A DNA stretch of 64,000 bases from the NCBI GenBank assembly GCA_013360215.1, contig JABWCP010000004.1, positions 62,001 through 126,000 on the forward strand, written 5' to 3'. Under the pieces are notes generated by a model. That model was not told where the DNA came from. It searched no databases and saw nothing but the letters and a program-made list of their open reading frames with translations. Shown here piece by piece: positions 34,646 to 56,900 of this stretch (the first letter of the stretch is position 1; each line of letters starts with the position of its first letter). This DNA comes from a bacterium. GTDB taxonomy: Bacteria; CLD3; SB21. The position numbers and the translations under genes were made by a program.

Positions 34646-35290
34646 CTAATTTTTCTTAGACTTTGCAGAACGGATTTGATTTTGAAAGTATGAGCAGTTT
34701 TCATTGACAGGACATTCTTCGCATTTGGGGTTCGTGGGTCTACAAATTTCACGCCCTAAAAAAGAAATAGCCATACCTACATCACCCCAATATTTCTTTT
34801 CAACGACAGCCATTAGATCTTTTTCTATTTTTTCCGGCTTTTCTTCTTTTGTAACGCCTACTCTGGGCGCCACACGTACGACATGCAAATCCACGATAAT
34901 TCCCTCCGCTGGTCCTCCGGATTCGCGAATAATCACACTGGCCGATTTGCGGCCTATTCCTTTGAGTGATGTCAAAGTTTCCATCATAGTCGGTATGTTT
35001 TCATCTGAACCGACAGTTTTTGCAATGCCGGCTAACCATTTAGCTTTGTTACCAAAATTGCGCACATCTCGTATGTGTGACGCGATTTCATCTTCTGTCG
35101 CCTTAGCCAGTTCGCGCATAGACGGATAAACGCCAAAAAACCTCGGCCCGACCTCGTTAATATGCTTGTCGGAATCCTGCGCCGATAAAAGCGTCATGAC
35201 TAAAAGCTGGTATCTGTTTTTGTATTCTAAAGGATGCTTTTTGTTTTTATACTTTTTGATGATCGGCATCAAGGCGTCGTTCCAATTCAT
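34646..35290 (-). CDS. nth: Endonuclease III
   Basis: LLSAQ, HhH LKGIGRKSA, VDLHV, CxxxxxxCxxCxxxxxC Fe-S motif. Confidence 0.9.
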   Translation of the reverse strand: MNWNDALMPIIKKYKNKKHPLEYKNRYQLLVMTLLSAQDSDKHINEVGPRFFGVYPSMRELAKATEDEIASHIRDVRNFGNKAKWLAGIAKTVGSDENIPTMMETLTSLKGIGRKSASVIIRESGGPAEGIIVDLHVVRVAPRVGVTKEEKPEKIEKDLMAVVEKKYWGDVGMAISFLGREICRPTNPKCEECPVNENCSYFQNQIRSAKSKKN

Positions 35291-35313: not shown

Positions 35314-36486
35314 TCAGAATAAGCTTTCTTGTACCACCCCGCCGCGTAGAAAACTCGCTGGTTCTCCGCGTACCACTTTTTTATCGAATCCGTATTTTTT
35401 ATAAAACAGGTTAAACAAATTTGATATGTGGTCGGCCATATTACCTTCGCCACGCATGCGTTTTCCAAATTCCGTATTATTTAGTTTTCCTCCGCGCACC
35501 GATTGGATAGCGTGTAATATCTTTTCCTTTTTATTGGGCTCATTTCGCGTAAGCCAATCAGAAAAAAGTTCACGCAACTGGTACGGTAATCGAAGTACGG
35601 TATATCCGGCACTGGTCGCTCCCGAATCTGCAGCTCTCCTTAATATTTCGGGTATTTCGTGATCGTTGAGTCCGGGGATAATAGGAGCCATCAAAACACC
35701 CACAGGAATATTGTTTTTAGCTAATAATTCGATCGCCTTAAGACGGTTATCGGGTCGCGATGTGCGAGGCTCCAATCTACGCGCAAGACCTGTATCCAAC
35801 GTCGTGATCGAGATCATGGCCCCGAATAAATTCAGCTTTGAAAGTTGTGAAATGATATCCAAATCACGCGTTATAAGATAATTTTTGGTAATCATTCGCA
35901 CGGGGTTTCTATATTTGAGAAACACCTCCAAACATGCACGCGTAATTTTTAATTTTCGCTCGATCGGCTGATAACAGTCTGTGTTACTAGAAAAAGCAAT
36001 TGGTTCCGCTTTCCACGACGGCTTCAAAAATTCTTTCTCAAGTAGTTTTGCAGCATCGTATTTGACGTGAATTTTAGTTTCAAAATCCAAACCTAAGGAA
36101 TGACCTAAAAATTCATGTGAAGGCCTTGCATAGCAATAAACACATCCGTGTTCACAACCCCGATACGGATTGATTCCATAAGTAAAAGGTATGTCGGGAC
36201 TGTCATTTTTTGAAAGAATAGTTCGTGATTTGTCTTCGATAAGTTCCGTGGGTACAGTTCGTTCAGGATCTATATCTTCTTCTGTAATATCGTCTATGCT
36301 TTTATCCTGATGCTGCGTATCAAAACGATTGGGTGGATTAAACCCGGAAGAACGCCCTTTGATGTTGGTTGTAAATGGCGTTTGCGGCGCAATTTCAAAA
36401 TCATTATATTCGCTCGCTTCATCCGATTCGTATTTTACGATGCGATATGAATCTGATTTTTCTTCATGTTTTTCCGGCTTTGGCAT
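35314..36486 (-). CDS. PA0069/Rv2578c-family radical SAM protein (SplB-related)
   Basis: NPYRGCEHGCVYCYARP, TDCYQPIE, LEPR. Confidence 0.92.
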   Translation of the reverse strand: MPKPEKHEEKSDSYRIVKYESDEASEYNDFEIAPQTPFTTNIKGRSSGFNPPNRFDTQHQDKSIDDITEEDIDPERTVPTELIEDKSRTILSKNDSPDIPFTYGINPYRGCEHGCVYCYARPSHEFLGHSLGLDFETKIHVKYDAAKLLEKEFLKPSWKAEPIAFSSNTDCYQPIERKLKITRACLEVFLKYRNPVRMITKNYLITRDLDIISQLSKLNLFGAMISITTLDTGLARRLEPRTSRPDNRLKAIELLAKNNIPVGVLMAPIIPGLNDHEIPEILRRAADSGATSAGYTVLRLPYQLRELFSDWLTRNEPNKKEKILHAIQSVRGGKLNNTEFGKRMRGEGNMADHISNLFNLFYKKYGFDKKVVRGEPASFLRGGVVQESLF

Positions 36487-36578
36487 AGCATCAACTTATC
36501 GCATTTAGGAGCAAGACGCAAGCCTGCCGGTTGTAATTCACACACAATAACCATGATTTCATAATTTGGAGTTTTCGC

Positions 36579-39275
36579 ATGGAATACCTTCCGTCTTCTA
36601 AGAATCCGATTCATTCTCAGCGCCGTCGAGGAAAATTTTATGATGTGAGTGATATCTTGGCTCAAAAACCTTCGACGATCTCCGGAGAAGATATACAGTT
36701 TTTTGAAGAACTTGATCTTGTGTACCGCACAATGTGTGGGATTCTCTATAATTTTGTACCTTTATCCGGCCATCCTGGTGGAAGTCTGTCCAGTGGACGT
36801 ATCGTTGAGGGTCTTTTATACCAATCCATGGACTACGATTTTTCCAAGCCGGATATCGATATCAACGACATGATTTGCTACACTGCCGGCCATAAAGCCA
36901 TGGGGTTGTATGCCATGTGGGCGTTACGCAATGAGTTAATTCGCATAGCCAATCCCGGAATGCTTGCCCCCGAACGCCGTCAATTGCGCCTTGAAGATCT
37001 TTTAGGTTTTCGTAAAAACCCGACGCAAGGTACGCCATTATTTGAAAAATTTAAATCGGTTTCACTGGATGGCCATCCGTCATGCATTGTTCCTTTTGTG
37101 AAAACGGCAACCGGTCCTAGTGGTGTTGGCGTACCTGCGGCATTCGGTCTTGCTTTTGGTGCACTGGACATGTACCCCGAAAATCCTCCCCGTACACATT
37201 TACTCGAAGGAGAAGGCGGCATGACACCGGGTCGTGTTTATGAAGCTATAGCCGCAGCCGCTTCCGCTCAGCTTCGTAATGCGGTTTTACACATTGATTG
37301 GAATCAATCAACGATTGATTCAGACCGATGCACCGCTGAAGGTGATAAACACGGCGACTACGTACAGTGGGATCCTGTTGAACTCATGTATCTTAATGAC
37401 TGGAATGTTATTTTTGTACCCGAAGGCCACAATTATCATCAGGTACTCACGGCTCAAAAAATTGCTCTATCTCTCCAATCCGATATGCCTACAGCCATCG
37501 TGTATCGCACGGTCAAAGGTTATACCTATGGCGTCACCGGTAAAGCTTCACATGGTGCCGGTTATAAATTTTGTTCGCCTGAGTTTTATAATTTCATCAA
37601 ACCCTTTGAAGAACAATTTGGTGTGATGTTTCCTCGTTTTGCCGGCGATGCAAAAAACCCTGTGGATGTTGAAACCTTTTATTGGAATACGCTTTTAGTA
37701 ATTCGTGAAGTGCTTGAAAAAAATTCTTTTTTACCGCAAGAAGCTGCCAAACGCCTTGCCTTATCTCAAGATCGTCTATACTCTCATAGCCGTACCCACC
37801 GCGCACATGCGCCAAAGCTAGCCAATATTTATGACGGCACAGTCAACTTAAGCGCAATGCCTGACGATATTCGTTTGGAGCCGGGAACATCCACCACCAT
37901 TCGCGGACAAGTAGGTAAAGTTCTTAATTATCTTAACAAAAAATCAAATGGCGCCTTAGTAGCAACGGCCGCCGATCTTTTCGAATCAACAAGCATTGCG
38001 GCTGTTGGAAAAGGATTTTCGGACGGTATGTTTAACGCAAAAACCAATCCGGGTGCACGTTTAGTACCTGTGGGTGGTATTTGTGAAGACGCGATGGGCG
38101 CTTTTATGTCCGGTGTTTCAAGTTATCGTAATCATATCGGCATCAGCGCCTCGTACGCGGCTTTTATTGTCGCGATGGAACACACCGCAGCGCGGTGTCA
38201 TTCGATCGGTCAGCAAAATTATTGGGAACGTACCGGCGAACCGATGCATACATGGATTATGGTCAATGGGCACGCAGGTCCTAAAACCGGAGAAGACGGA
38301 CCGACACATGCCGACCCACAGTGTTTGCAACTTCTATGTGAAGATTTCCCCTCAGGCAAACTTATAACGCTAACACCCTGGTCACCGGACGAAGTGTGGC
38401 CCCTTATGATCGAAGGGCTCATGAAGCGACCCGCCGTGCTTGCACCTTTTGTAACCCGACCCGCCGAGACAGTCCCAGATCGTGTCAAACTCGGATTGGA
38501 TCCAGCGATCGCTGCAGCTAAAGGTGTTTATGCTTTTCGCCGAGCCAATATGAATGCGCGTGAATATCACGGCACCTTGGTACTGCAAGGCTGCGGAGTA
38601 GCCAGTATGTTTATCAATGGAGTTTTGGAAAAAATCGACAAAGCCGGTTTGAACATGAATATTTTTTATGTTGCCAGCACTGAACTTTTCAAACTCCTTC
38701 CTGAAAAGGAACAGGAGGCTATTTTTCCGGAACATCTCCGTACCCACGCAATGGGTTTGACAGATTTTACATTGCCTACAATGTATCAGTGGATAAGATG
38801 GAATGAAGGACTTAACCGCACACTGCATCCATTCCGGCATGGACACCACCTTTCTACCGGATCGGCTGAAAAAGTGCTTGAGGAAGCAGGGCTTCACAGC
38901 GAAGGTCAATTCAAAGAAATTATGAAGTACGCACGTATGATCGAAAAGATGAATTTGACTAAACCTCAAACAGATTCAGTTAAAGCTGAAGAAAAGATTA
39001 GATCGAATCGAGGTCGTCAAAAAAGTAAAAAGACTGGAGCGGGTCGTATAAACCATGAAAAACAAACAAAGTTGCAGAGAAAAAACACCGGAACTAAGTC
39101 AAACAAGGGTATAAACCGGAATAAAAAAGCGCCAAATAAAATTACTATCAAACCCGGACCCGGTAGACCAAGAAAAAATAAGCTTGTTCGTCCGATAATA
39201 AAATCACAAAAGTCTAAGAAGAATAAGACGACTAAGAAAATAAAGCCAGGACCAGGAAGGCCAAGAAAAAAATGA
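36579..39275 (+). CDS. Transketolase-like ThDP enzyme with a basic C-terminal tail containing two AT-hook motifs
   Basis: SGHPGGSLS, AGHKA, LDGHP, GEG..N ThDP motif, GEDGPTH; tail with IKPGPGRPRK twice. Confidence 0.85.
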   Translation: MEYLPSSKNPIHSQRRRGKFYDVSDILAQKPSTISGEDIQFFEELDLVYRTMCGILYNFVPLSGHPGGSLSSGRIVEGLLYQSMDYDFSKPDIDINDMICYTAGHKAMGLYAMWALRNELIRIANPGMLAPERRQLRLEDLLGFRKNPTQGTPLFEKFKSVSLDGHPSCIVPFVKTATGPSGVGVPAAFGLAFGALDMYPENPPRTHLLEGEGGMTPGRVYEAIAAAASAQLRNAVLHIDWNQSTIDSDRCTAEGDKHGDYVQWDPVELMYLNDWNVIFVPEGHNYHQVLTAQKIALSLQSDMPTAIVYRTVKGYTYGVTGKASHGAGYKFCSPEFYNFIKPFEEQFGVMFPRFAGDAKNPVDVETFYWNTLLVIREVLEKNSFLPQEAAKRLALSQDRLYSHSRTHRAHAPKLANIYDGTVNLSAMPDDIRLEPGTSTTIRGQVGKVLNYLNKKSNGALVATAADLFESTSIAAVGKGFSDGMFNAKTNPGARLVPVGGICEDAMGAFMSGVSSYRNHIGISASYAAFIVAMEHTAARCHSIGQQNYWERTGEPMHTWIMVNGHAGPKTGEDGPTHADPQCLQLLCEDFPSGKLITLTPWSPDEVWPLMIEGLMKRPAVLAPFVTRPAETVPDRVKLGLDPAIAAAKGVYAFRRANMNAREYHGTLVLQGCGVASMFINGVLEKIDKAGLNMNIFYVASTELFKLLPEKEQEAIFPEHLRTHAMGLTDFTLPTMYQWIRWNEGLNRTLHPFRHGHHLSTGSAEKVLEEAGLHSEGQFKEIMKYARMIEKMNLTKPQTDSVKAEEKIRSNRGRQKSKKTGAGRINHEKQTKLQRKNTGTKSNKGINRNKKAPNKITIKPGPGRPRKNKLVRPIIKSQKSKKNKTTKKIKPGPGRPRKK

Positions 39276-39294
39276 TAAAAAAACAGCAATAACG

Positions 39295-39328
39295 AAAAGC
39301 CCCGTTAAATTTATTAGCGGGGCTTTTT
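39295..39328. terminator. Bidirectional intrinsic terminator
   Basis: AAAAGCCCCGTTAA...TTAGCGGGGCTTTTT between convergent genes. Confidence 0.85.
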
Positions 39329-39373
39329 ACTAAACAAAAACATGTTCGAAAGAGTCGATCTTAAATGTATAAA

Positions 39374-39919
39374 TCAAAATTCTATTTTAAACGGTATCTT
39401 TACCAATTCCCAATGCAAATAAACCGTACATGATTTATCGGTTACACTCTCAAAACCATACGTTAGAACTTCTTGAAATTTTGCAGTTTCTTTTTTAACC
39501 GTTACCCGTAAAGCATCTTCATTTTGATCATAGGAATAACTTCCCCAAGCTGTTGAGTTTTTGTTAAAAATAACAACGAACTCTGATTCCCCTGGTATCA
39601 TATGCAAACCATACGTTCCGGCTTTCAGAGTTTGGCCTTCGATTTTAACGTCTTTGCTTACAGTGAAAGTCGTATTCTCATTCGCTCCGGCACGCCAGGG
39701 TATCATCTTGCCGTCACGATTTTTTGTCAAACCAAACGGAACAAGCTCTCCCCATATTTTCCTGCCTTTCACAGAAGGTTGGCTATAATTAATTGATATT
39801 TTTTCTGAACCTACTTTTTGCTCTGATTTGGCCGGAGGACTCGGTTTTTTATTATCTTGAGAAAATACCAAACCCGATAGTATTAGACTAAACGCAAGAT
39901 AACGAAGTGTTTTTTTCAT
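39374..39919 (-). CDS. DUF2911-family exported protein
   Basis: Signal peptide; SPPA, YSQPSVKGRKIWGELVP, WRAGANENT. Confidence 0.88.
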   Translation of the reverse strand: MKKTLRYLAFSLILSGLVFSQDNKKPSPPAKSEQKVGSEKISINYSQPSVKGRKIWGELVPFGLTKNRDGKMIPWRAGANENTTFTVSKDVKIEGQTLKAGTYGLHMIPGESEFVVIFNKNSTAWGSYSYDQNEDALRVTVKKETAKFQEVLTYGFESVTDKSCTVYLHWELVKIPFKIEF

Positions 39920-39946
39920 GCGGATCTCCTTTTATGGTGTAATTAA

Positions 39947-39972
39947 AAACGGTTACCGAAAAGTAACCGTTT
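39947..39972 (-). terminator. Intrinsic terminator after the pgl-surE operon
   Basis: Minus strand AAACGGTTAC-ttttcg-GTAACCGTTT followed by T residues. Confidence 0.7.
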
Positions 39973-40013
39973 ATACGATGTAAACTTTTAAAAGTTTGTT
40001 TCTCAAAGCGATT

Positions 40014-45346: not shown

Positions 45347-46768
45347 TTAAAACGCCGCCAGTTCAATTTTTCTTTTTATGATCTCAACGTCTTCTTTTAT
45401 TTTTGTGTTTGATTTCATCCATTCTTCTACCATTTTGCAAGCGTATATCACGGTGCTGTGATCCCTCCCTCCAAAATGGATTCCTATAGTTTTTAAAGAA
45501 CTTCCCAAGATTTCTTTTACCAAATACATACATATTTGGCGAACTTCAGCTATTTCCTTTTTTCTTCCCTTCGTAAGCATTTGATCTACGGGAATCGAAT
45601 AATAATCCGATACGATCTTCTGAATGGTTTCGATGGATAAATTTTTTCTTTTGCTGGCTATAGTATCTTTAAGCACAGCCTTAGCAACATCAAGATTAAG
45701 CTCCGTATTGGTTATCGAGGCATAAGCAAGTAATCTGATCAAAGAACCTTCGAGCTCGCGGATATTTGATGTAATATTCATTGCGACAAACTCGCATACA
45801 TCCGGAGGTAAATATACGCCGTCTTCTTCGCTGCGTTTTTGGAGAATAGCAATACGAGTTTCAAGATCCGGCGGCTGAATATCCGTTACCAGTCCCATTT
45901 GAAATCGAGAAATCAAACGTTCTTCAACTTGTTTCAATTCTTTGGGCGGACGATCCGATGTTAGAATAATTTGTTTACCAAGTTGGTGAAGCGTATTAAA
46001 TGTATGAAAAAATTCTTCCTGGATTTTTCCTTTATCGGCGAAGAATTGTATATCATCCACCATGAGCAGATCAAAGCTACGGTATAAACGACTAAACTCT
46101 AAAACATCATTTTTTCGAATCGCTGCAACAAAATCATTCGTAAAAGTCTCACTCGTCACATAACATATTTTTTTTTCAGGAAAGTTTCTTTTTACCTGAT
46201 TACCTATGGCTTGTATAAGATGCGTTTTTCCCAGACCGGCACCACCATAAATAACGAGTGGATTAAATGACGTTTTACCTGGTTTTTCAGAAACAGCTAA
46301 AGCGGCTGCTTTTGCAAATTTGTTTCCATTTCCTTCGATATAGTTATCAAAAGTATATCGTATGTTTATGAAGCTGTCATAAACGACTTGAGTTGTTTCT
46401 TTTGGTTTATTTACAGAAGCTTGAAGAACGAGTGGTGTGGATGGTGTAGAAACTGTTTGGATCGGCTCTGTAATTTCTTTTACGATGTATGTTACGCCGA
46501 TTGAACGACCACAAACTTCGCGTAATGTATTCAAAATCAAATCGTTATAACGGCTTTCTAACCATTCGACAAAAAATTGATTAGGTATAAATGCAACAAA
46601 CTTCTCATTTTCTATAATATGAGGTTCTATTGGATTAATCCACGTTCTAAAGGAAGGACCGGGTATTTGTGATTTGATTAAATCACAACAGCGATTCCAT
46701 ACTGATTTGGCATCAAGTCCGACGATCGCTGACATATTACCCGATTCTGTTGTAGTAGGCTCAACCAT
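45347..46768 (-). CDS. dnaA: Chromosomal replication initiator DnaA
   Basis: YTFDNY, FNPLVIYGGAGLGKTHL, DDIQF, QEEFFHTFN, NIRELEG, FGGRDHSTV. Confidence 0.98.
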   Translation of the reverse strand: MVEPTTTESGNMSAIVGLDAKSVWNRCCDLIKSQIPGPSFRTWINPIEPHIIENEKFVAFIPNQFFVEWLESRYNDLILNTLREVCGRSIGVTYIVKEITEPIQTVSTPSTPLVLQASVNKPKETTQVVYDSFINIRYTFDNYIEGNGNKFAKAAALAVSEKPGKTSFNPLVIYGGAGLGKTHLIQAIGNQVKRNFPEKKICYVTSETFTNDFVAAIRKNDVLEFSRLYRSFDLLMVDDIQFFADKGKIQEEFFHTFNTLHQLGKQIILTSDRPPKELKQVEERLISRFQMGLVTDIQPPDLETRIAILQKRSEEDGVYLPPDVCEFVAMNITSNIRELEGSLIRLLAYASITNTELNLDVAKAVLKDTIASKRKNLSIETIQKIVSDYYSIPVDQMLTKGRKKEIAEVRQICMYLVKEILGSSLKTIGIHFGGRDHSTVIYACKMVEEWMKSNTKIKEDVEIIKRKIELAAF

Positions 46769-46991
46769 GACTTAAAAACAAGTTATTAACAATATAAACA
46801 CAAAACAAAAAAAACAACACAGGTTAACAAAACAAATTAAGATCAAAGAAAAAAACAATCAAGTTAATTATTTACAGTAGTTTGAATAAAAAAAGTAAGA
46901 AAAACGAGGGGGTAATTAGTAAATAACCTAAAACAACAACAACATATAAACAAATTATCAACACAAAACAAATACGATGAAACACGACTAC

Positions 46992-47019
46992 AATTTATCA
47001 AAGACAAGGTCTTTGTCAA
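46992..47019 (-). promoter_or_regulatory. Putative dnaA sigma70 promoter
   Basis: Minus strand TTGACA-16 nt-TAAATT with TGn extended -10. Confidence 0.6.
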
Positions 47020-47214
47020 GTGCTTTGTCAAAGCATAGTATATGTGAATAGTTATCTTTTTGTTATTTTGGTGTTTATTTCTAAAACTTTTTTTAACTTT
47101 TTTTTCTTGACAGATATGCCATCAACAACAGAATTTTATAAAACTAATAGATTCAAATATTAGCGTGGATTAAACATGAAAACAGTTTATTTGTTAAAAA
47201 CGCTACTTTTAAGC

Positions 47215-47243
47215 TTGACTTTCCACACCTTATGTTATATATT
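47215..47243 (+). promoter_or_regulatory. Putative rpmH sigma70 promoter
   Basis: TTGACT-17 nt-TATATT. Confidence 0.7.
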
Positions 47244-47363
47244 CCCCACCCATTTGTATGTATACGTGTATTAGATTGCTACTTAAATGTGATATACTTA
47301 TACATTGCGGTTATTGGAAATGCGAAAATATTGTTTAACAAATAAATAATTTGCGAGGATCAC

Positions 47364-47507
47364 GTGAAACGTACCTATCAACCCAGCAAGCGTAAACGTA
47401 AAAATAAACACGGATTTCGCTCGCGTATGAAAACAAAAGGCGGAAAAAATGTTTTGGCATCTCGCCGAGCCAAAGGTCGTAAAAAACTTTCAGTAAGCGA
47501 CGAATAA
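47364..47507 (+). CDS. rpmH: 50S ribosomal protein L34 (below the ORF-track length cut-off)
   Basis: Manual translation from [56 protein letters not shown] upstream. Confidence 0.97.
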
Positions 47508-47529
47508 TTTTTTTTGAAATTAAGATTTT

Positions 47530-47564
47530 ATAAGGCTTCTTTCAAAACACGAGAGAAGCCTTAT
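47530..47564 (+). terminator. Hairpin between rpmH and yidD (terminator or stabiliser)
   Basis: ATAAGGCTTCT...AGAAGCCTTAT 11-bp inverted repeat followed by TTATT. Confidence 0.6.
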
Positions 47565-47576
47565 TTATTCTATGGT

Positions 47577-47837
47577 ATGACAATGCTCCGACGTTCTGTA
47601 CTTTATTTTTTTGTCAGCCTCATCCGTATTTATCAACATACGCTTTCTGTTTATTTTCCGTCCTCTTGTCGTTTTTATCCTTCATGTTCTCAATATAGCA
47701 TCGAATCACTAAAATCTCACGGTTTGTTCAAAGGGCTTTGGTTGACGATCCGACGCATATCTAAATGCCACCCATTTCATGAAGGTGGATATGATCCCGT
47801 GCCACAAAATCAAAACACTAATAATAATTGCTGCTGA
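47577..47837 (+). CDS. yidD: Membrane protein insertion efficiency factor YidD
   Basis: [32 protein letters not shown]. Confidence 0.94.
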
Positions 47838-47858
47838 TATTTTCTGGAGACAAACTCA

Positions 47859-49583
47859 ATGGATAGACGTACGATTTTCGGGCTTTTTATGATTGCTCTT
47901 ATCATAATATTGTATCCTTTTTACATGCAGGTTGTCGCACCACCTGTAGATCCCTCTGTTAAAACCACATCAGCTGTTGATAGTTCCTCAACTCCAACTC
48001 ATCATGATACTGTTCTACAATCTAAGACTAACATTTCAAGAGAAAGCGTTCAACCTAAAACGGTTAGCTTGACAAATGATACAATAAAACAATCTGAAAA
48101 AATTATTCGAATTAATTCAGAAATATATTCAGCTGAAATATCAAATTTCGGTGGCGGATCCATTAAAAGCTGGAAAATACTTCCTTACAAAACTCATGAT
48201 GGACAACCTGTAGATTTTATTGAGTCCTCAAAAAACTTAAATCTGAATTTTGTTTTTCAGGGAAAAAATTTTAATACGTGGAATATACCATACTCCATAA
48301 CTAATACGGATTCAGTTATTGACTTAAAAACCACACAAAAAAAATCTTTAACGTTTGTTTATCATTTTGACTCCGAAAGACAGATCATTCAAAATCTAAC
48401 TTTTTATAATAATAGATATGATGTTGATATAGAAGTTCAGTTTAAAAATTTTGGCGATGATATAACTAATGGTGAATACCAGATACAATGGTTGTCAGCG
48501 CTCAAGAGCACAGAACTTGATCTCAACGGTGATCTGAGTCATACCATATCTTATGCTTATATGGGTGATGAAAAAGAAGAGTTTGATATTGGAACCGACC
48601 CCTCAAAAGAAACTTCCTGGTCCGGAGTTACGAAATGGGTTGCTTCTCGAACAAAATACTTTGCAGTATATATTATTCCACAAGAAAAAGATGGGATTGG
48701 CTGCAAGCTAACTAGCACAACAATTCACGAAAACGGTTTGCTTACAAAAAAATCAAATTTCATGAATATTCAAATGAAGTTTGAACCCAACGTTGTTGAT
48801 CGTTATAAATTTTATATTGGTCCGATGGATTATCATATTTTAAAAGAATATGATGATAATGTAGTTGTCACGATGGAATGGGGTTGGGCCGTATTTAGAC
48901 CACTTACGAAAGCTATTTTTTATACATTCAACTTTCTTTATGATATAATCCCAAATTATGGATGGGTTATCATAGTTTTTACTCTTTTAGTCAGAATAGT
49001 TCTTTATCCTTTGACTTATAAGACTTTCGTAGGCATGCAAAAAATGAAAGTTGTTATGCCACGACAAAAAGAGATTCAAAAGAAATACAAAGACAATCCT
49101 TCCAAAATGCAACAAGAGATGATGAAGCTTTATAAAGAAGCCGGCTACAATCCTCTTTCAGGTTGCCTACCCATGTTAATACAAATGCCTTTATTGTTTC
49201 CTATTTATCAAGTTTTTAACCAAAGCATAGAGTTGCGTTTGGCTCCTTTTTTTGGATGGATAACCGATTTATCAAGGCCGGATACGATAGCTATTTTACA
49301 TACAGGCCTGCCTTTTATAGGCGATTTTCATGTAAATCCTCTTCCTATCATCATGACTTTACTTACATTTTTACAACAAAAAATAGCTCCGATGACACCG
49401 ATGGGAGACGACTCCGATCCGGCTCAACGTTTTAATCAAAAATTCCTTCTATACGGTATGCCGATTATGTTCTTTTTCTTGTTTAACGGATTTGCTTCCG
49501 GGTTAGTTTTATACTGGACAGTATTCAACGTATTGACGATGGCACAACAAGTTATGATGCAAAAATTTGTTGAAGTAAAATAA
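47859..49583 (+). CDS. yidC: Membrane protein insertase YidC
   Basis: N-terminal TM plus periplasmic domain; PNYGWVII, GCLPMLIQMP, WITDLS, GLVLYW. Confidence 0.96.
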   Translation: MDRRTIFGLFMIALIIILYPFYMQVVAPPVDPSVKTTSAVDSSSTPTHHDTVLQSKTNISRESVQPKTVSLTNDTIKQSEKIIRINSEIYSAEISNFGGGSIKSWKILPYKTHDGQPVDFIESSKNLNLNFVFQGKNFNTWNIPYSITNTDSVIDLKTTQKKSLTFVYHFDSERQIIQNLTFYNNRYDVDIEVQFKNFGDDITNGEYQIQWLSALKSTELDLNGDLSHTISYAYMGDEKEEFDIGTDPSKETSWSGVTKWVASRTKYFAVYIIPQEKDGIGCKLTSTTIHENGLLTKKSNFMNIQMKFEPNVVDRYKFYIGPMDYHILKEYDDNVVVTMEWGWAVFRPLTKAIFYTFNFLYDIIPNYGWVIIVFTLLVRIVLYPLTYKTFVGMQKMKVVMPRQKEIQKKYKDNPSKMQQEMMKLYKEAGYNPLSGCLPMLIQMPLLFPIYQVFNQSIELRLAPFFGWITDLSRPDTIAILHTGLPFIGDFHVNPLPIIMTLLTFLQQKIAPMTPMGDDSDPAQRFNQKFLLYGMPIMFFFLFNGFASGLVLYWTVFNVLTMAQQVMMQKFVEVK

Positions 49584-49597
49584 AAGAATCTAATTTT

Positions 49598-49638
49598 AAA
49601 GTCACTCGGATAACTATAGGTTTGAAGAGTGACTTTTT
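49598..49638 (+). terminator. Terminator-like hairpin after yidC
   Basis: AAAGTCACTC...GAGTGACTTTTT. Confidence 0.6.
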
Positions 49639-49656
49639 ATTTTATTATTTCCAAAA

Positions 49657-51033
49657 ATGAATTTTGACGAAACGATTGCCGCTATAAGTACCCCTATTGG
49701 AACAGGAGGGGTTTGTATGATACGCGTTTGCGGTAAAGAAGCCCTTAATTTAGCCGATCAAATTTTTTTAGGTCATTCAAAACCAAGCCAGCATATTAGC
49801 CACACTCTTCATAACGGTTATATTATTGAACCCTTAACAAAAGAAAAAATTGATCATGTCTTGATCGGGATTATGCGCGGTAAACAAACGTATACAGGTC
49901 TTGATACGATAGAAATATACGGTCACGGTGGAATATTAAACGCTAAAAGGATTTTAGATGTCTGTATCAAGTATGGTGCCCGTCATGCTGAACCTGGAGA
50001 GTTTACTAAAATTGCCTTTCTTAATGGAAAAATGGATTTATCCCAAGTCGAGGCTGTGGCCGATCTTATTCACGCCAAAACAGAAAGCGCTAGACGTTCA
50101 TCCATGGCACAATTCATGGGAAACCTATCTCATGAGATCGATGAATTAAAAAGCCAACTTATTAAGCTTTGTTCACTTCTCGAGTTAGATCTTGATTTCG
50201 GAGAAGAAAACCTGATCAGTATTACCAAAGAATCCATTGATGCTCAAATAACCAATGTACAACTACAAATAGAAAAACTCTTATCCACCTACAATACAGG
50301 TCACCTTATAAGGGAAGGTGCAAAAATATCAATCATAGGAAAGCCGAATGTTGGGAAGTCAAGCCTTTTGAACGCAATGCTAAAGCGAAATAGGGCTATA
50401 GTAAGCGACATACCGGGAACTACGAGAGATTTTATTGAAGAAAGCTTAGATATACAGGGAATGCCTTTTATATTTGTTGATACGGCTGGTATACGTCAAT
50501 CAAAAGACGTAATAGAAAATCAAGGTATCCAATCATCAATGGAGATAGCGAAAAACAGCGACTTGATATTAGCCATTTTCGATGGATCGGAAGATTTAAA
50601 CGAAGAAGATATTAATATTTTAAAAATGGTTGAAGATCTAATATCGAAACAAAAGCACGTAAAAGCCTTATTTATAGCCAATAAATGCGACAAAGAAAAC
50701 TATAACCCACAAAGAACTAAAAACGATTTTATAGAGATTTCGGCAAAAAATGATATAGGGATTGATAAACTAAAAAGAAGTATTGGTGATTTATTTCTTA
50801 ACAATTTCTCTATTGAATCACCAATGATAACTAGGTTGCGCCACAAAAACTCTTTAGAAAACAGCTTAGTATCATTAAATAACGCAAAAATTAGCCTTCA
50901 TAATAAGATGTCTTATGAGTTCATTTCTCTAGATATTAAAAACGCTATTCGACACCTTGGAGAGATAATTGGTGAAGTTACTGGGGACGATGTTTTAAAC
51001 AACATTTTTTCAAATTTTTGCATTGGAAAGTGA
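49657..51033 (+). CDS. mnmE: tRNA modification GTPase MnmE
   Basis: TIAAISTP, AEPGEFT, GKPNVGKSSL, IPGTTRD, DTAG, C-terminal FCIGK. Confidence 0.97.
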   Translation: MNFDETIAAISTPIGTGGVCMIRVCGKEALNLADQIFLGHSKPSQHISHTLHNGYIIEPLTKEKIDHVLIGIMRGKQTYTGLDTIEIYGHGGILNAKRILDVCIKYGARHAEPGEFTKIAFLNGKMDLSQVEAVADLIHAKTESARRSSMAQFMGNLSHEIDELKSQLIKLCSLLELDLDFGEENLISITKESIDAQITNVQLQIEKLLSTYNTGHLIREGAKISIIGKPNVGKSSLLNAMLKRNRAIVSDIPGTTRDFIEESLDIQGMPFIFVDTAGIRQSKDVIENQGIQSSMEIAKNSDLILAIFDGSEDLNEEDINILKMVEDLISKQKHVKALFIANKCDKENYNPQRTKNDFIEISAKNDIGIDKLKRSIGDLFLNNFSIESPMITRLRHKNSLENSLVSLNNAKISLHNKMSYEFISLDIKNAIRHLGEIIGEVTGDDVLNNIFSNFCIGK

Positions 51034-51100
51034 AATAATTCGTGCTCCTAAAAAACAGAACATTGATTTAAATAAAACATATTTATAATAAACCGGAGCA

Positions 51101-51116
51101 TGTTTCACGTGAAACA
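51101..51116. other. parS centromere-like site 1
   Basis: Perfect palindrome TGTTTCACGTGAAACA (consensus chromosomal parS). Confidence 0.93.
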
Positions 51117-51159
51117 AAAAGTAAAAAAACCGACGTTTCATAAGTTTTAACCATAAAAC

Positions 51160-51175
51160 TGTTTCACGTGAAACA
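51160..51175. other. parS centromere-like site 2
   Basis: Perfect palindrome TGTTTCACGTGAAACA. Confidence 0.93.
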
Positions 51176-51186
51176 ATAAAAAGCAA

Positions 51187-53103
51187 ATGGATGTTTTTGA
51201 TGTGGTAATAGTAGGTGGAGGGCATGCGGGTTATGAAGCGGCTTTTGCGGCATCTAGACTTGGATGTATTACACTCCTTCTTAGCATGGAAAAAATAAAA
51301 ATAGGAACTTTATCTTGTAACCCGGCAATTGGTGGCACGGCAAAAGGTCATTTAGTAAAAGAAATTGATTCACTTGGCGGTGAAATGGGGTTTATAACTG
51401 ATCAGGTAGGAATTCAGTTCAGAATGCTTAATAAATCTCGCGGCCCCGCCGTGTGGTCACCTAGAGCTCAAGTTGATCGAGCCGCTTATCCATTAAAAAC
51501 CCAAGAGCTTCTAGGTTTGAGAAAAAATGTATCCATTCGCGATGCAAATATTGTCGGTGTTGTAGTTGAGTCCAATCAAATAAAAGGTGTAGTTACTGAT
51601 ACTAATGAGCTTATTAAAGGTAAAACTGTAATACTTACTTGTGGTACCTTCTTAAATGGCATAATTCACATAGGACTAAAAAATGTTAGCGCAGGAAGAA
51701 TAGGAGAAAAACCATCACTTGGTATAACTGAGTCTTTAATTAGTTTGGGATTTGAAAGTTCTCGTTTAAAAACAGGAACTCCTCCAAGAATTCACAAAGA
51801 TAGTATTAACTTTTCAGTTTGCGAACCACAATATGGTGATAATCCACCAGAACCGTTTTCATATCGAACCGATAGCATAACCAATACTCAGATTCCTTGC
51901 CATCTTACTTATACCAACGAAAAAACTCATGATATTTTGAAATCAGGTTTTGATCAATCGCCAATGTTCACAGGTAGAATAAAAGGATTGGGACCAAGGT
52001 ATTGCCCATCTATAGAAGATAAAATCAATCGCTTTTCAGATAAAGAAAGGCATCAAATATTTTTAGAACCGGAAGGTTATGATTCCATAGAATACTATGT
52101 AAATGGATTTTCTACAAGTCTTCCTGAAGAAATTCAAATCAGCGCAATAAGATCTGTTACTGGCTTAGAAAACGCACATGTTTTAAGACCTGGTTACGCG
52201 GTTGAATATGATTTTTTTCCTCCGTATCAAATTAATTTAAATATGGAGACAAAATATGTAGAAGGCCTCTTTTTTGCGGGTCAGATCAATGGTACATCTG
52301 GATATGAGGAAGCAGCTGCTCAAGGAATGATGGCCGGAATAAATGCAGCTTTAAAAGTAAAACAAAAAGATCCTTTTATTTTACGTCGAAACGAAGCATA
52401 TATCGGCGTACTTATTGATGATCTTGTTAACAAAAGCACACTTGAACCGTACCGTATTTTTACTTCGCTAGCAGAGTATCGTTTACTCTTAAGGCAGGAT
52501 AATGCTGATATGCGCCTTATGGAAAAAGGAAACGCATTTGGCCTTATCGATGAACACCAAATGGAAAAGTTTATCAGAAAAAAAGATGCAATAAATCAAA
52601 TAGAAACTTGGATAGAAAAAACAAATTTGCAACCAAAAAAAATCAACCCTTTTTTAATAAAAAAGGGGTCCGCAATCTTAGAAGAACCGGAACCTTTAGT
52701 TAAAATATTAAAAAGACCGGAAGTAACTTTAACTGATTTATTAGATTGTGAAGAAGGAATTTTCGAACCAAATATTGTGAATTTATTAAAATATCGAGAC
52801 ACATTAAGGGAAGTTGATACATCAATAAAGTATGATGGTTATTTAAAAAGACAACAGGAGCAGGTTGATAGATTTTTGCGAATGGAGAACAAAAAAATAC
52901 CATCCAATTTTGATTACGATAAAATAACATCACTTTCGAAAGAAGCACGTGAAAAATTAAAAAAAGTTAAACCTGGCAACGTAGGGCAAGCGAGCCGGAT
53001 TTCCGGTGTTTCTCCAAGTGATATATCGCTATTATTAGTTTTTTTAGAAAGAGGCTCATTAGGAAAGAATATCCAAGATTCATTTAATGGTACACTAAAT
53101 TAA
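51187..53103 (+). CDS. mnmG: tRNA uridine 5-carboxymethylaminomethyl modification enzyme MnmG (GidA)
   Basis: VGGGHAG, SCNPAIGG, RLKTGTPPR, GPRYCPSIEDK, GQINGTSGYEEAAAQG. Confidence 0.98.
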   Translation: MDVFDVVIVGGGHAGYEAAFAASRLGCITLLLSMEKIKIGTLSCNPAIGGTAKGHLVKEIDSLGGEMGFITDQVGIQFRMLNKSRGPAVWSPRAQVDRAAYPLKTQELLGLRKNVSIRDANIVGVVVESNQIKGVVTDTNELIKGKTVILTCGTFLNGIIHIGLKNVSAGRIGEKPSLGITESLISLGFESSRLKTGTPPRIHKDSINFSVCEPQYGDNPPEPFSYRTDSITNTQIPCHLTYTNEKTHDILKSGFDQSPMFTGRIKGLGPRYCPSIEDKINRFSDKERHQIFLEPEGYDSIEYYVNGFSTSLPEEIQISAIRSVTGLENAHVLRPGYAVEYDFFPPYQINLNMETKYVEGLFFAGQINGTSGYEEAAAQGMMAGINAALKVKQKDPFILRRNEAYIGVLIDDLVNKSTLEPYRIFTSLAEYRLLLRQDNADMRLMEKGNAFGLIDEHQMEKFIRKKDAINQIETWIEKTNLQPKKINPFLIKKGSAILEEPEPLVKILKRPEVTLTDLLDCEEGIFEPNIVNLLKYRDTLREVDTSIKYDGYLKRQQEQVDRFLRMENKKIPSNFDYDKITSLSKEAREKLKKVKPGNVGQASRISGVSPSDISLLLVFLERGSLGKNIQDSFNGTLN

Positions 53104-53106
53104 TAT

Positions 53107-53790
53107 ATGCAAAACAAACAAATAAATTGGGATGTTTTTTTTCAAATATTTGAAAATAATATACTTAGCTTAAACAGCGTTCAGAAAAATCAATTTTTTT
53201 CTTTTTATGATTTTCTTCTGGATTGGAATAAAAAAATTAATCTCATCGGCCGTCAAGAAGAGGGTATCATTTCTCGTCATTTTCTTAATTCTGCATTAAT
53301 TGCTTTTTTTGTTAAATTTAAAAAAGAACAGAAAGTAATAGATATCGGCAGTGGCGGAGGTTTTCCTGCAATTATTTTAAATATTATTTTTTCTGAAACA
53401 CAATTCACTCTGGTCGAATCAATTAAAAAAAAATGTGATTTTCTTCAAGAAGCCGCAAAGTTTGTCGGACTTAAAAATTTATTGGTAATAAATGAACGGG
53501 CTGAAAAAATTGCGAAAACAAAATCTTTTTCATCTCAGTATGAATTCGTAACCGCACGTGCAGTTTCAGCTTTAGATGAACTTATTCCTTTGACGAGTCC
53601 GTTTTTAAAAAACGAGGGTAGGATGCTTTTTTTAAAGGGAAGGCAGGTAGATATAGAAGTCGAATCGGTTAAAAAATCAAATTGGCCTGATAAATACTCA
53701 ATGACGATTCATCGCTTTCAAAACATCCCTTTTATTCCTAGTGATCAAGAAAGCGCTTTAGTTGACATAAAATTTTTTCTTGATAGGTAG
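53107..53790 (+). CDS. rsmG: 16S rRNA m7G527 methyltransferase RsmG (GidB)
   Basis: WNKKINL, RHF, DIGSGGGFP, VTARAV, LKG; directly after mnmG. Confidence 0.94.
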   Translation: MQNKQINWDVFFQIFENNILSLNSVQKNQFFSFYDFLLDWNKKINLIGRQEEGIISRHFLNSALIAFFVKFKKEQKVIDIGSGGGFPAIILNIIFSETQFTLVESIKKKCDFLQEAAKFVGLKNLLVINERAEKIAKTKSFSSQYEFVTARAVSALDELIPLTSPFLKNEGRMLFLKGRQVDIEVESVKKSNWPDKYSMTIHRFQNIPFIPSDQESALVDIKFFLDR

Positions 53791-53948
53791 TTCATTTTTT
53801 TTTAAGTTATTAAATTATAATCCAACCGAGGGAGATCATCCGAGAGGCCTTTTTTACTACGAATTGATTTCAACTTAAGACGAACTTTCCGAATAAGGCT
53901 TTGATTGTGCGATTGTTGATTCATCAATATGATCTGCAGGTGGGTGGA

Positions 53949-56900
53949 TTGTTTCTCCATATTAATTTAAAAAAACTTCTCGTAGTTTCATTTCTATTTT
54001 ACTTATTCAATCCGATTAAATCTTTTTCTCAGGATTTGGATAGTATTTCCCCTTCACTCCAATCGGCGGATTCAATTCTGTTTTTCATCCAAGAAAAAGA
54101 AGTTGATAAAAAAATCAATAGAACTCTTACTTCTTACGATGGCAAACAAGACTCTGTTTGGAATGATCCCAATGTTATAAAAGCTTTTGAAGACGAATTA
54201 ATGGGTTTGATGTCAGAAATTGATGCCAATCTTTCAATAACCGGTCAACTTGATCTGGTGATAAATCAAGCAATCGAAAATGAGGCAAAAAAAAATAAAG
54301 ACTCTAGGTCAACGCGATCGTTATTTTCTTTATACCCCTTTCAATATTATAACACGATTTCTGTAGACCCCAATCAAAATTACTTTTTAATACGTGGTGG
54401 TTCCTTAGATTTTTCACAAACACAAAAACTATTACCGGGTTATAAAGTAACGGCAAAATTGGATTCATCGGGCAATTATGTTTTTGCTGATGAATTTGGC
54501 CAAACAACAAAGAAACAACGGCTCAAAGAAACAACCGTAATAAAACAGGAATCTTATATATCAAATTCGTTTGTTTATCAGATTAGAAGTGTTTTTACTA
54601 AAACTGTGGTTACTGGTATTGCTTCAAAAGAAGAACGTCAATCCGGGGCCGTAAGACTCTTTAGTGCCAGCGTTACAACCAACGAAACCTTTCAAAAAAT
54701 ATTTGGTGGTGATGAAGTCACTGTAGACGCGACAGGCAATATTAATCTGAATGTTTCCGGAGCCAGCGAAAAATCTTCTAACCAAAGTACATCTACCGGA
54801 AAAAGTTCTCAATTCATACCAAAATTTGAACAACAACAAAAATTCAACTTACGCGGTACAATAGGAAAAAAAGTTGAGATTTTATTTGATCAAGATAGTG
54901 AGCGTGAGTTTAGTTTTGAGAATAATATAAAAATCACTTATACGGGTTTTGATGATGAAATTTTACAAAAATTAGAAGCTGGCAATATTGATCTAAGCTT
55001 ACCAGGAACACAATACGTAACACAGGGTGGCCAGAACAAGGGACTCTTTGGTGTAAAATCAATCTTTAAGTTTGGCGATCTTACACTTACATCTATCGCA
55101 AGTATACAAAACGGAGAAAAGAAAGTAATTGAAATCAATCCGGGTTCAGGCAATAATTCGGCATCAATAAAGAAAATAGCCGCTAAAGATTACGAAAGAG
55201 GAAAGTTTTTCTTTTTAGACAGACGATATTTTAATCGTTATGAAATATATGATCCTCAAAACGGCCGTAAGCACACTTATGATCCTGCGAACGAAATTGT
55301 AAATATAAGACTTTTCCGCAAAAGCGAGGGCAATGATAGAAACCCTGAAAAAAGGATAGGGGTTGTAACTTATAACAATTCCACTTTGACAAATCCAAAT
55401 CTGCACAACATGACGGTTTCTCAAATAACTGCTTTGGATTCTGCAAATGCGGCCACTATGATTTTTTTAGAAGTTCCTAAAGAACAGTTTTCTTGTAATT
55501 TCCAGCTAGGAATAATAACTCTCAGTACCAAACTCATTGACGGTGAGGCATTAGCAGTTTATTATGAAACACCACAACAGGTATTCGGAGATGTTTCTTC
55601 TGACACTTTGAAATTAAAACTATTATGGAAACCTACCCCTCTTCCTACAGATTCAACTTGGGATTTAGAATTAAAAAATATTTACGCTTTTGACGGCATA
55701 ACCGGTCTGAGTGCCGAAGAAGGAGAAAGTGTAAAAATAAAATTTAAACCCTCATCAAATAATGACATAACAAGTTTTCCAAATATTAGCGGTAAAGATC
55801 GGGGATTACTTGATATACTTCACGTAGATGAAACCAACCAAAGTGGTAAATCAAATGATCCAGATCAAATAATTGATATAGCTTCTTCGGATTTGGCTGG
55901 ATATGGTTTAGACTACAACAATGGTTGGATTATTTTCCCACGTTTAAGACCTTTTGATCCTCCCTCAACACCGCTTCCCGGTTTTCGAGACGAGGTTTTT
56001 CCGGCTTCAAATAACGATCCCAATCTCGGTGAAGTACGAATACCTATTATATACAATGAAGCAAGGTCGTCTGATAAATTTAAACAATTTAACGATCGTT
56101 ATTCGATAGAAATAGAAAGTAAAAAAAGCAACTCTGCAAAAACCAATTTAGGTATTAATGTTTTAGAAGGTAGTGAAGTTGTACGGCTAGATGGTGATGT
56201 TTTGGAAAAAAATATTGGATACACTATTGACTATACTTCCGGTGATTTGATTCTAATTGATCCACGCGCCACTCTTCCGACTGCTAACATTAAGATCGAA
56301 TACGAACAAGCACAACTATTTCAAGTTGATAAAAAATCTATTTTTGGTACACGTGCAGAATATAATTTGTCTAATTACGGATTAGGCTCCAATTCATTTA
56401 TTGGAACAACGGCGCTTTTTCATAGTCAATCTACAGTAAACAAACGTGTTCAAATCAATGAAGAGCCGTTTAATAATTTTGTATGGGATATAAATACAAA
56501 TATCGAATTAGAAGCTAATTATCTAACAAAATTCATTAACTATATTCCTTTTGTTTCCTCCAATCAGAATTCTAAAATCAATTTTGCGGCTGAATACGCA
56601 AAACTACTTCCTACTCCAAATACGAGTAATGGGTTGATGGAAAATGATGAAAATGGAGTTGCGTATATAGATGATTTTGAAGCAATAAAAAGAACCTATC
56701 CTATGGGTTCAAATAGAAAATCCTGGACTCTTGCCAGCAAACCTATTGAGAAAAACGCTTCCAAGCGTCGAAAATTAATCTGGTATCAAAATGAAATTTC
56801 AAGAAGCAAAATATCTAATATTAAAACCAACAATACAGATAGAGCGACCGTATTAACTCTAACCTTACAAAATAAAATAAGTGATGAGGCCCCAACGGAC

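Follow-up and report, generated by a model that had tools for sequence, protein, structure and literature searches.

In bacteria, AT-hook and histone-H1-like tails have been described for transcription factors, nucleoid proteins and DNA enzymes; we report tails of this kind on ordinary metabolic enzymes, throughout a family of uncultured sludge bacteria. The gene in question lies at 36579–39275 (+) of a 64,000-nucleotide (nt) stretch of bacterial contig JABWCP010000004.1 (assembly GCA_013360215.1, positions 62,001–126,000, forward strand; hereafter the window). It is a single 898-aa open reading frame (ORF) for a transketolase-like, thiamine diphosphate (ThDP)-dependent enzyme that passes without an intervening stop codon into a basic tail carrying two GRP motifs. 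The disordered AT-hook domain of Myxococcus xanthus CarD is described as binding the AT-rich minor groove and as probably mediating nucleoid localisation (PMC4374960). Like the window protein, CarD joins a folded N-terminal part to an unfolded basic C-terminal domain with repeated GRP hooks, but it acts as a transcription factor and its four RGRP hooks follow an acidic segment, whereas the window carrier is a metabolic ThDP enzyme with PGRP hooks, no acidic segment and no sequence homology to CarD. HMGA-like and histone-H1-like domains are reportedly functionally equivalent in that factor. Eukaryotic HMGA AT-hooks and extended AT-hooks share with the window tail a GRP core between K/R and P residues, two to three hooks, a disordered chain and basic patches 6–20 residues away; the window motifs differ in having no Pfam AT_hook match, in having Pro for the first Arg and in their independent, species-level origin.

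Two further systems bear on the tail. Bacterial histone-H1-like Lys-rich tails, described for AlgP, PhaF and the actinobacterial Ku and TopA, are long, disordered, DNA-binding and strain-variable (PMC9239181, PMC3553676, PMC7398561). The window tail resembles them as a long disordered Lys-rich terminal domain that varies between strains, but their carriers are DNA- or granule-associated and have KPAA/PAKKA-type repeats, whereas the carriers here are mostly metabolic enzymes and show no such repeat. The nearest system, as a functional analogy, is the yeast mitochondrial nucleoid, where Aco1, Ilv5, Idh and Kgd1 are reported to sit on and protect DNA (PMC7463775). There too central-metabolism enzymes, including an aconitase and a ThDP enzyme subunit, are found on a nucleoid; unlike with the appended tails considered here, their DNA contacts are made by parts of the folded protein, and there is no evolutionary link.

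The window gene comprises an enzyme core (aa 1–790; 36579–38948, +) and a polycationic C-terminal tail (aa 791–898; 38949–39272, +), closed by a TGA at 39273–39275 with a TAA immediately after it. The last conserved core residues, ...KYARMIEK, end at about residue 790 and are followed in frame by 108 more, the junction reading ...MIEK/MNLTKPQTDSVK. Counted from 38940, the final 111 residues hold 28 K, 11 R, 5 D+E and 3 Ala, and the net charge is +34 for the tail against −9 for the core. A preliminary description of this DNA, made from the sequence alone, had reported an in-frame Lys/Arg-rich tail on a transketolase-like enzyme, and the 39 K+R among these 111 residues bear it out. Intrinsic disorder of the tail is predicted by the AlphaFold2 model, whose pLDDT (predicted local distance difference test) falls below 50 over aa 815–898; with its Lys and Arg content, this gives the Lys-rich disordered terminal domain of bacterial histone-H1-like tails. 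Lys-Ala-Pro tandem repeats of the KPAA/PAKKA (AlgP) type were not found in the tail. A Pfam scan of the tail alone gave no meaningful family match, its ESM Atlas neighbours included no usable match, and phmmer against 1.84 billion representative proteins returned 0 matches at E ≤ 0.001. Its composition is distant from that expected of random AT-rich read-through.

Enzyme core and tail are very likely one protein. The ORF is uninterrupted, and a strong hairpin lies 19 nt past its stop. The contig of run X10 covers 38745–39450 with 0 differences to the window, and the run X12 contig (3673 nt), which comes from a different study, extends over 38300–39450 with 22 substitutions and 0 indels. The 90%-identity cluster of the window protein has 16 members, named 'hypothetical protein' in the NCBI records; six are full length (896–900 aa), one of them found on 12 contigs. 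These six yield five tail haplotypes, in all of which the frame is kept and length changes by whole codons only. Orthologs in three related genera (G001, G003 and G004) also carry in-frame Lys-rich tails (29–35 aa) that start at the same point. Because contigs from two other studies bridge the junction and multiple in-frame haplotypes exist, the tail genuinely belongs to the reading frame of this gene, and the assembly fusion against which the preliminary description had cautioned is excluded by bridging without indels. The substitutions in the X12 variant are unevenly spread: 13 of the 22 (1151 nt compared) lie inside 63 nt (39211–39273), with 0 in the preceding 412 nt, and this crowding suggests that the 3′ end of the gene is recombined or hypervariable.

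The alternative that the tail is separate from the enzyme, as an assembly chimera, as a peptide started at the internal Met of MNLTKPQ or as the mirror of an antisense gene, is largely refuted and extremely improbable. It could draw on the ATG at the core/tail junction, on an antisense 90-aa ORF and on RNA-library contigs (runs X15 and X16) that reach only 38408–38842, ending near 38840; these contigs come from a single sample, however, and contigs cannot show transcript ends. Besides the bridged junction, it is opposed by the gene-calling of an 896–900-aa protein in multiple independent assemblies. A separate start at MNLTKPQ, which the preliminary description had raised, is unsupported because the junction Met is replaced by Leu in G001 and G003, whose ORFs nonetheless continue. 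The antisense ORF (39017–39289, −), a Phe/Leu-rich mirror of the Lys codons, was rejected as a gene: in the X12 variant a stop (TTA>TGA) interrupts it and the sense frame remains open, its own TGA becoming AGA and termination moving to the following TAA. Fusion with a downstream gene was likewise rejected, as no GRP-encoding frame lies downstream of the short-tailed orthologs and the downstream DNA there is unrelated.

Within the tail, the decapeptide IKPGPGRPRK occurs twice, at exactly the positions first noticed: motif 1 at 39147–39176 (+; GRP = aa 862–864; codons atc aaa ccc gga ccc ggt aga cca aga aaa) and motif 2 at 39240–39269 (+; GRP = aa 893–895; codons ata aag cca gga cca gga agg cca aga aaa). 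The copies differ at six third-codon positions, all synonymous. An exact 10-residue repeat arose in 0 of 20,000 composition-preserving shuffles of the tail, the chance of six random substitutions in 30 nt being all synonymous is P ~1.2e-4, and the hook pair, 32 nt, is the only repeat in the tail. The synonymous pattern alone cannot pick the strand, because the antisense ORF uses the same wobble positions as the sense frame; the sense strand is settled by the X12 variant, which stops the antisense ORF and leaves the sense frame open. With that addition, the six silent changes sustain the earlier proposal that the copies have been selected as peptide.

Comparison between strains points the same way. 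The core differs at 4–8 of 790 positions. For the tail (110 positions), three variants show 28, 28 and 33 differences, and two others show 1 and 10. Four blocks of the tail are unchanged across the strain variants, namely KIRSNRGR, INRNKKA, KITIKPGPGRP (6/6 full-length variants) and KKIKPGPGRPRKK. All 4 changes that the X12 variant has in motif 2 are synonymous, while the spacer just upstream has 4 non-synonymous ones; the spacer around the motifs is Lys/Arg/Asn/Thr-rich and fast-evolving. A degenerate hook, RGRQK (aa 811–815; 39009–39023, +), lies nearer the core, and NRGRQK (39006–39023) of the window becomes NRGRPK, with a canonical RGRP hook, in variants P0121, P0130 and P0134. The species thus has two to three candidate hooks, ~30–50 residues apart. 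In our view it is likely that purifying selection has acted on the GRP peptides themselves, and the pattern, as far as sequences can tell, is the signature of selected short linear motifs in a fast-evolving disordered linker. Conservation of the motif, and not of mere charge, argues for a putative shape-specific ligand.

The literature words an AT-hook as a GRP core with flanking K/R and P (PMC11354804; PMC4615771), and the RGR core is described as lying deep in the minor groove (PMC11354804). Both window motifs have K at −4, R and K at +1 and +2, and P at −1, at −3 and in the core, and both have K/R within 5 residues on either side of GRP, the distance rule given in PMC4615771. By this wording the motifs qualify, and we call them AT-hook-type, as candidate members of the class. 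The search rule for extended AT-hooks in that source calls for >3 K/R within 6–20 residues on each side of GRP; the counts are 5 and 6 for motif 1, and 7 and 0 for motif 2, after which the protein ends. The label of HMGA-type AT-hook in the preliminary description stands for the GRP with its K/R/P flanks; it does not stand for the core, which is PGRP and not the RGRP of HMGA and CarD, nor did the AT_hook model PF02178 recognise the tail in a low-power test.

The tail is not special to the window enzyme: it belongs to a wider habit of this bacterial family, in which many cytosolic enzymes carry Lys-rich tails. A scan of the genome under strict criteria, with Pfam used for domains, flagged 19 of 2752 non-overlapping ORFs of ≥150 aa; flags on L1, PrmA, CMD and RsfS were doubtful and were excluded from the count of tailed proteins. 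At least 15 other Pfam-identified proteins carry Lys-rich terminal tails beyond their recognised domains, with a net charge of +16 to +37 where computed: succinyl-CoA ligase alpha (SucD), aconitase (84 aa, +37), PGM/PMM (N-terminal, 88 aa, +37), the canonical transketolase (Tkt; 54 aa, +24; G000:C36:14453-16600), a circularly permuted ATP-grasp protein (CP-ATP-grasp), 3-hydroxyanthranilate dioxygenase (3-HAO), a cyclase/formamidase-like protein, a low-molecular-weight (LMW) phosphatase (LMWPc), two glyoxalase-fold proteins, a DinB_2 protein, a methyltransferase, a YbjN-like protein, a SWIB protein and a hybrid histidine kinase. Topoisomerase I also has a tail, seen by eye only and outside the scan. 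The tailed 3-HAO and 'Cyclase' proteins (G000:C19:135770-136387 and 239714-240418), the second of which we take to be of the kynurenine-formamidase kind, could share one pathway.

Two of these tails were followed across genomes. A 60–95-aa Lys-rich tail on aconitase (K+R ≥21 in the last 50 residues) is present in 11/11 same-family genomes with a complete C-terminus versus 0/7 outgroups, after one outgroup row, in which the longest ORF was another gene, was dropped. The Tkt tail (K+R ≥16) is present in 12/14 same-family genomes (absent in G003 and G006) versus 0/8 outgroups; here too a row was removed because its longest ORF was another gene, and a family ORF cut off by the end of its contig was not counted. 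Between strains, the aconitase tail differs at 10/88 positions versus 3–4/738 in its core, and the Tkt tail at 1/54 versus 6–7/662, that is, with no faster change of the tail. The preliminary description had suggested a ThDP enzyme tethered to the nucleoid or RNA, or moonlighting as a DNA-binding protein. That suggestion needs one correction: with at least 15 other tailed proteins and family-wide tails on aconitase and Tkt, the enzyme is not singled out for a DNA-related second job, since the tail is a family trait and the hooks are an extra. In the open-access texts searched, no paper was met that describes such tails on metabolic enzymes of bacteria.

The hooked tail itself has a narrow distribution. 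Among 14 genomes with a complete C-terminus of the ortholog, the extension past the core is 108 aa in this genome (G000), 35 in G003, 32 in G004 and 29 in G001, with 1–10 residues in the other ten; the tails of the three related genera are Lys-rich and have no GRP. A GRP within the last 150 residues was found in 1 of the 120 best database homologues, which is the window's own cluster, and among plausible genes of the genome (3.72 Mb, GC 44.8%) a GRP in basic context is unique to the window protein. Recurrence of the tail among homologs, a point left by the preliminary description to alignment, is thus seen for short Lys-rich tails in G001, G003 and G004 and not for the hooks, which are confined to this species. 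The long hooked tail is thus a species-level elaboration of a short Lys-rich tail from one branch of the family.

We propose that one gene gives one protein, a divergent ThDP-dependent transketolase-fold enzyme with a ~108-residue polycationic disordered tail, and that this tail would act as a polyanion anchor, for which anchoring to nucleic acid is the best reading. In each hook, the Arg of GRP would be the inserted residue and the neighbouring Lys/Arg would grip the backbone; the catalytic part would remain a normal enzyme. Transketolases dimerise, and if the window enzyme is dimeric like them it would present 4–6 hooks. The tail is the most elaborate case of a family trait, the addition of histone-H1-like Lys-rich tails to cytosolic enzymes. 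To this explanation as a whole, anchoring role included, we assign a probability of roughly 0.5. Binding of nucleic acid by the tail in the cell is somewhat more likely than not, and DNA, rather than RNA or polyphosphate, is a tentative choice of ligand, with odds slightly below even; counted for it were the fit of the hooks to the AT-hook wording, the conservation of the motif beyond its charge, the moderately AT-rich genome and the CarD precedent.

Several points weigh against an anchor on nucleic acid. Binding, ligand and physiological purpose are all things that we infer. The repeated motifs read P-G-R-P, without the first Arg of the RGR core, and the one RGR of the window protein (aa 811–813) is followed by Q. 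The 13-position Pfam AT_hook model (PF02178) had no match at E ≤ 10 in the tail or in a six-frame search of the genome; the test is low-powered, given so short a model and the HMMER filters, because the RGRPK-bearing variants were also unmatched at this threshold. The 21-nt GPGRPRK pattern, present twice in G000, occurs in 0/14 family genomes. Other tails of the family have no GRP; therefore a general tail role needs no hooks and could rest on charge, which fits RNA and polyphosphate too. The genome encodes PPK1 and PPK2, and its three HU genes leave no evident nucleoid-protein gap to fill, so that the idea of tails replacing missing nucleoid proteins is unsupported. The one-sample RNA-library contigs, finally, do not cover the tail.

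One alternative for the ligand is RNA: the tail would bind ribosomes, mRNA or structured RNA and hold the enzyme in an RNA-rich zone or condensate. Extended AT-hooks are reported to bind RNA about ten-fold better than DNA (PMC4615771), canonical hooks are said to bind structured RNA as well (PMC11354804), and motif 1 satisfies the extended rule with its 5 and 6 K/R. That rule, however, comes solely from human and mouse proteins, the +6 to +20 stretch does not exist for motif 2, and K/R also stand directly beside the core, as in canonical DNA-binding hooks; we regard this alternative as unlikely. Polyphosphate would apply to the tails of the whole family, that of the window enzyme included, and would place the enzymes on polyphosphate granules like AlgP, whose Lys-rich disordered C-terminal domain is described as required for granule spacing, the protein being located on the granules (PMC9239181). 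In keeping with it are the two polyphosphate kinase genes, of which PPK2 (G000:C36:13597-14265) lies directly upstream of the Lys-tailed canonical transketolase on the same strand, the finding of the organism in activated-sludge metagenomes, and the fact that most family tails offer charge only, without a sequence motif. Yet where charge suffices there is no call for GRP blocks that stay invariant in a tail changing at ~25–30% of positions between strains, and PPK genes are common, the family models having matched 7 and 8 of 14 control genomes. We judge this polyphosphate alternative quite unlikely, with the proviso that AlgP is described as binding DNA too (PMC9239181), so the readings are not mutually exclusive.

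The same invariant blocks bear on an alternative without any specific ligand, in which the tail is a charge, solubility or spacing appendage, a nearly neutral extension tolerated in a lineage inclined to Lys-rich ends, or an arm that folds back on the mildly acidic core and tunes its activity. In its favour are the opposite net charges of core and tail, and a tail that evolves far faster than the core, has no homologue by phmmer among the 1.84 billion representatives and is freely gained, lost and resized (108, 35, 32 and 29 aa in four genomes, 1–10 in ten). Such a tail would nevertheless have kept its frame in five haplotypes despite 25–30% residue change, with motif blocks that change only synonymously and a composition far from that of random AT-rich read-through, and we hold this alternative to be improbable. 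Anchoring to nucleic acid remains our preferred explanation for the window tail. Its extension to the family, in which central-metabolism enzymes would be tethered to nucleoid or polyphosphate with the hooks as a recent groove-specific refinement, is doubtful; it would embrace aconitase, succinyl-CoA synthetase alpha, both transketolase types, phosphoglucomutase and kynurenine-pathway enzymes, and would make the family, by analogy, a counterpart of the enzyme-coated mitochondrial nucleoid.

If the tails do bind DNA, RNA or polyphosphate, they would be a natural bacterial case of enzyme localisation by polycationic disordered appendages, with a bearing on the organisation of the bacterial cytoplasm without membranes. 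The hooked tail offers a clean test object, being short, recent and equipped with motifs visibly selected within a rapidly changing spacer, and its carrier belongs to an uncharacterised transketolase-fold family with >4,000 database relatives and all catalytic motifs kept.

The core of the enzyme has a transketolase fold and retains the cofactor and active-site residues, and is not a canonical Tkt. Pfam recognised Transketolase_N (3.2e-12), with Transket_pyr at 22.3 bits, below its cut-off of 27. NCBIfam transketolase equivalog models scored 61–116 bits versus cut-offs of 488–788 (NF004559, 115.8 versus 488; TIGR00232, 69.7 versus 682), and because these scores fall below the curated cut-offs the protein is filed as transketolase-like and not as Tkt. 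Its best sequence match in the PDB is a split transketolase (2.7e-16). The AlphaFold2 model, built with 68 homologues, has a pLDDT of 84 and a predicted TM-score (pTM) of 0.84, and its Foldseek matches are all transketolases (best E 2.7e-35, TMt 0.76–0.85, ~20% identity). Residues invariant in the 68 homologues are EGEGG...N242, E503, H65, H105, H166, H325, R442, H565, GEDGPTH and R627; in a profile alignment they fall on SGHPG, AGH, GHPE, GDG...N, R, GIREHAMG, THDS...GEDGPTHQ and LTRQ of the genome's canonical Tkt, which we take to be the cofactor-activating, ThDP-contacting and sugar-phosphate-contacting positions of transketolase. The ThDP motif is E210-G-E212-G-G...N242, with Glu replacing Asp (GEG in place of the usual GDG, within residues 210–214), and is found in 68/68 homologues, as is E503.

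The canonical Tkt is encoded on another contig of the same genome, and the window enzyme is its paralogue. The two share the three-domain fold, and the window enzyme keeps counterparts of the ThDP-binding, cofactor-activating and sugar-phosphate-binding motifs, but identity is ~20% and the window enzyme has ~130 extra residues in insertions as well as GEG for GDG. By its motifs and modelled fold, the core is a putatively intact catalyst, a divergent transketolase-fold enzyme. At least 4131 proteins matched the family at E ≤ 0.001 among 8000 candidates scored. About 36 of the 120 best homologues (860–954 aa; P0027–P0030, P0035, P0050 and P0051 among them) have a C-terminal extension of ~85 aa that is rich in Cys and contains several CxxC pairs; this clade is KSB1-like where named, and its extension takes the place of the basic tail of the present species. 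In this transketolase-like family the C-terminus is a hot spot for add-ons.

Beyond the gene, 19 nt past its stop, begins a hairpin with A- and U-runs (39294–39328), a likely bidirectional intrinsic terminator between convergent genes, the neighbour beyond it being a DUF2911 gene. Its 15-bp stem (−22 kcal/mol, z −5.4; 0/200 shuffles equally stable) was detected by folding, and a simple terminator scan did not list it. An Rfam scan of 36000–40000 placed a sub-threshold rimP-leader on this hairpin (28.8 bits versus 47), which was taken as chance. Upstream, the enzyme gene is divergent from a radical-SAM protein gene (35314–36486, −), behind which lies a HhH-GPD/EndoIII-like glycosylase gene (34646–35290, −). 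The preliminary description had spoken of two divergent DNA-repair genes; the EndoIII-like glycosylase agrees with this, and the radical-SAM protein has no repair family match. The radical-SAM neighbour is kept in 7/14 relatives' loci (L006–L019), with or without a tail on the ortholog; as the sole recurring neighbour it is compatible with plain synteny.

The AT-rich origin domain mentioned in the preliminary description is indeed nearby. A classical origin neighbourhood occupies 45347–53790, with dnaA (45347–46768, −), a 1.1-kb AT-rich intergenic gap (46769–47858) and then yidC, mnmE, mnmG and rsmG (+); dnaA, the gap, this gene cluster and the cumulative GC-skew minimum lie 6–9 kb downstream of the enzyme gene. 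The closeness of oriC and of the EndoIII-like gene is positional only and gives no evidence of a functional link. The GC-skew minimum falls at ~47–48 kb, and GC drops from ~0.44 to ~0.34 from there to the window end. Named relatives of the organism are Bacteroidota or Ignavibacteriae metagenome-assembled genomes, and a 2374-aa ORF with a SprA_N domain (53901–61025), a type IX secretion or gliding component, fits a Bacteroidota-related organism.

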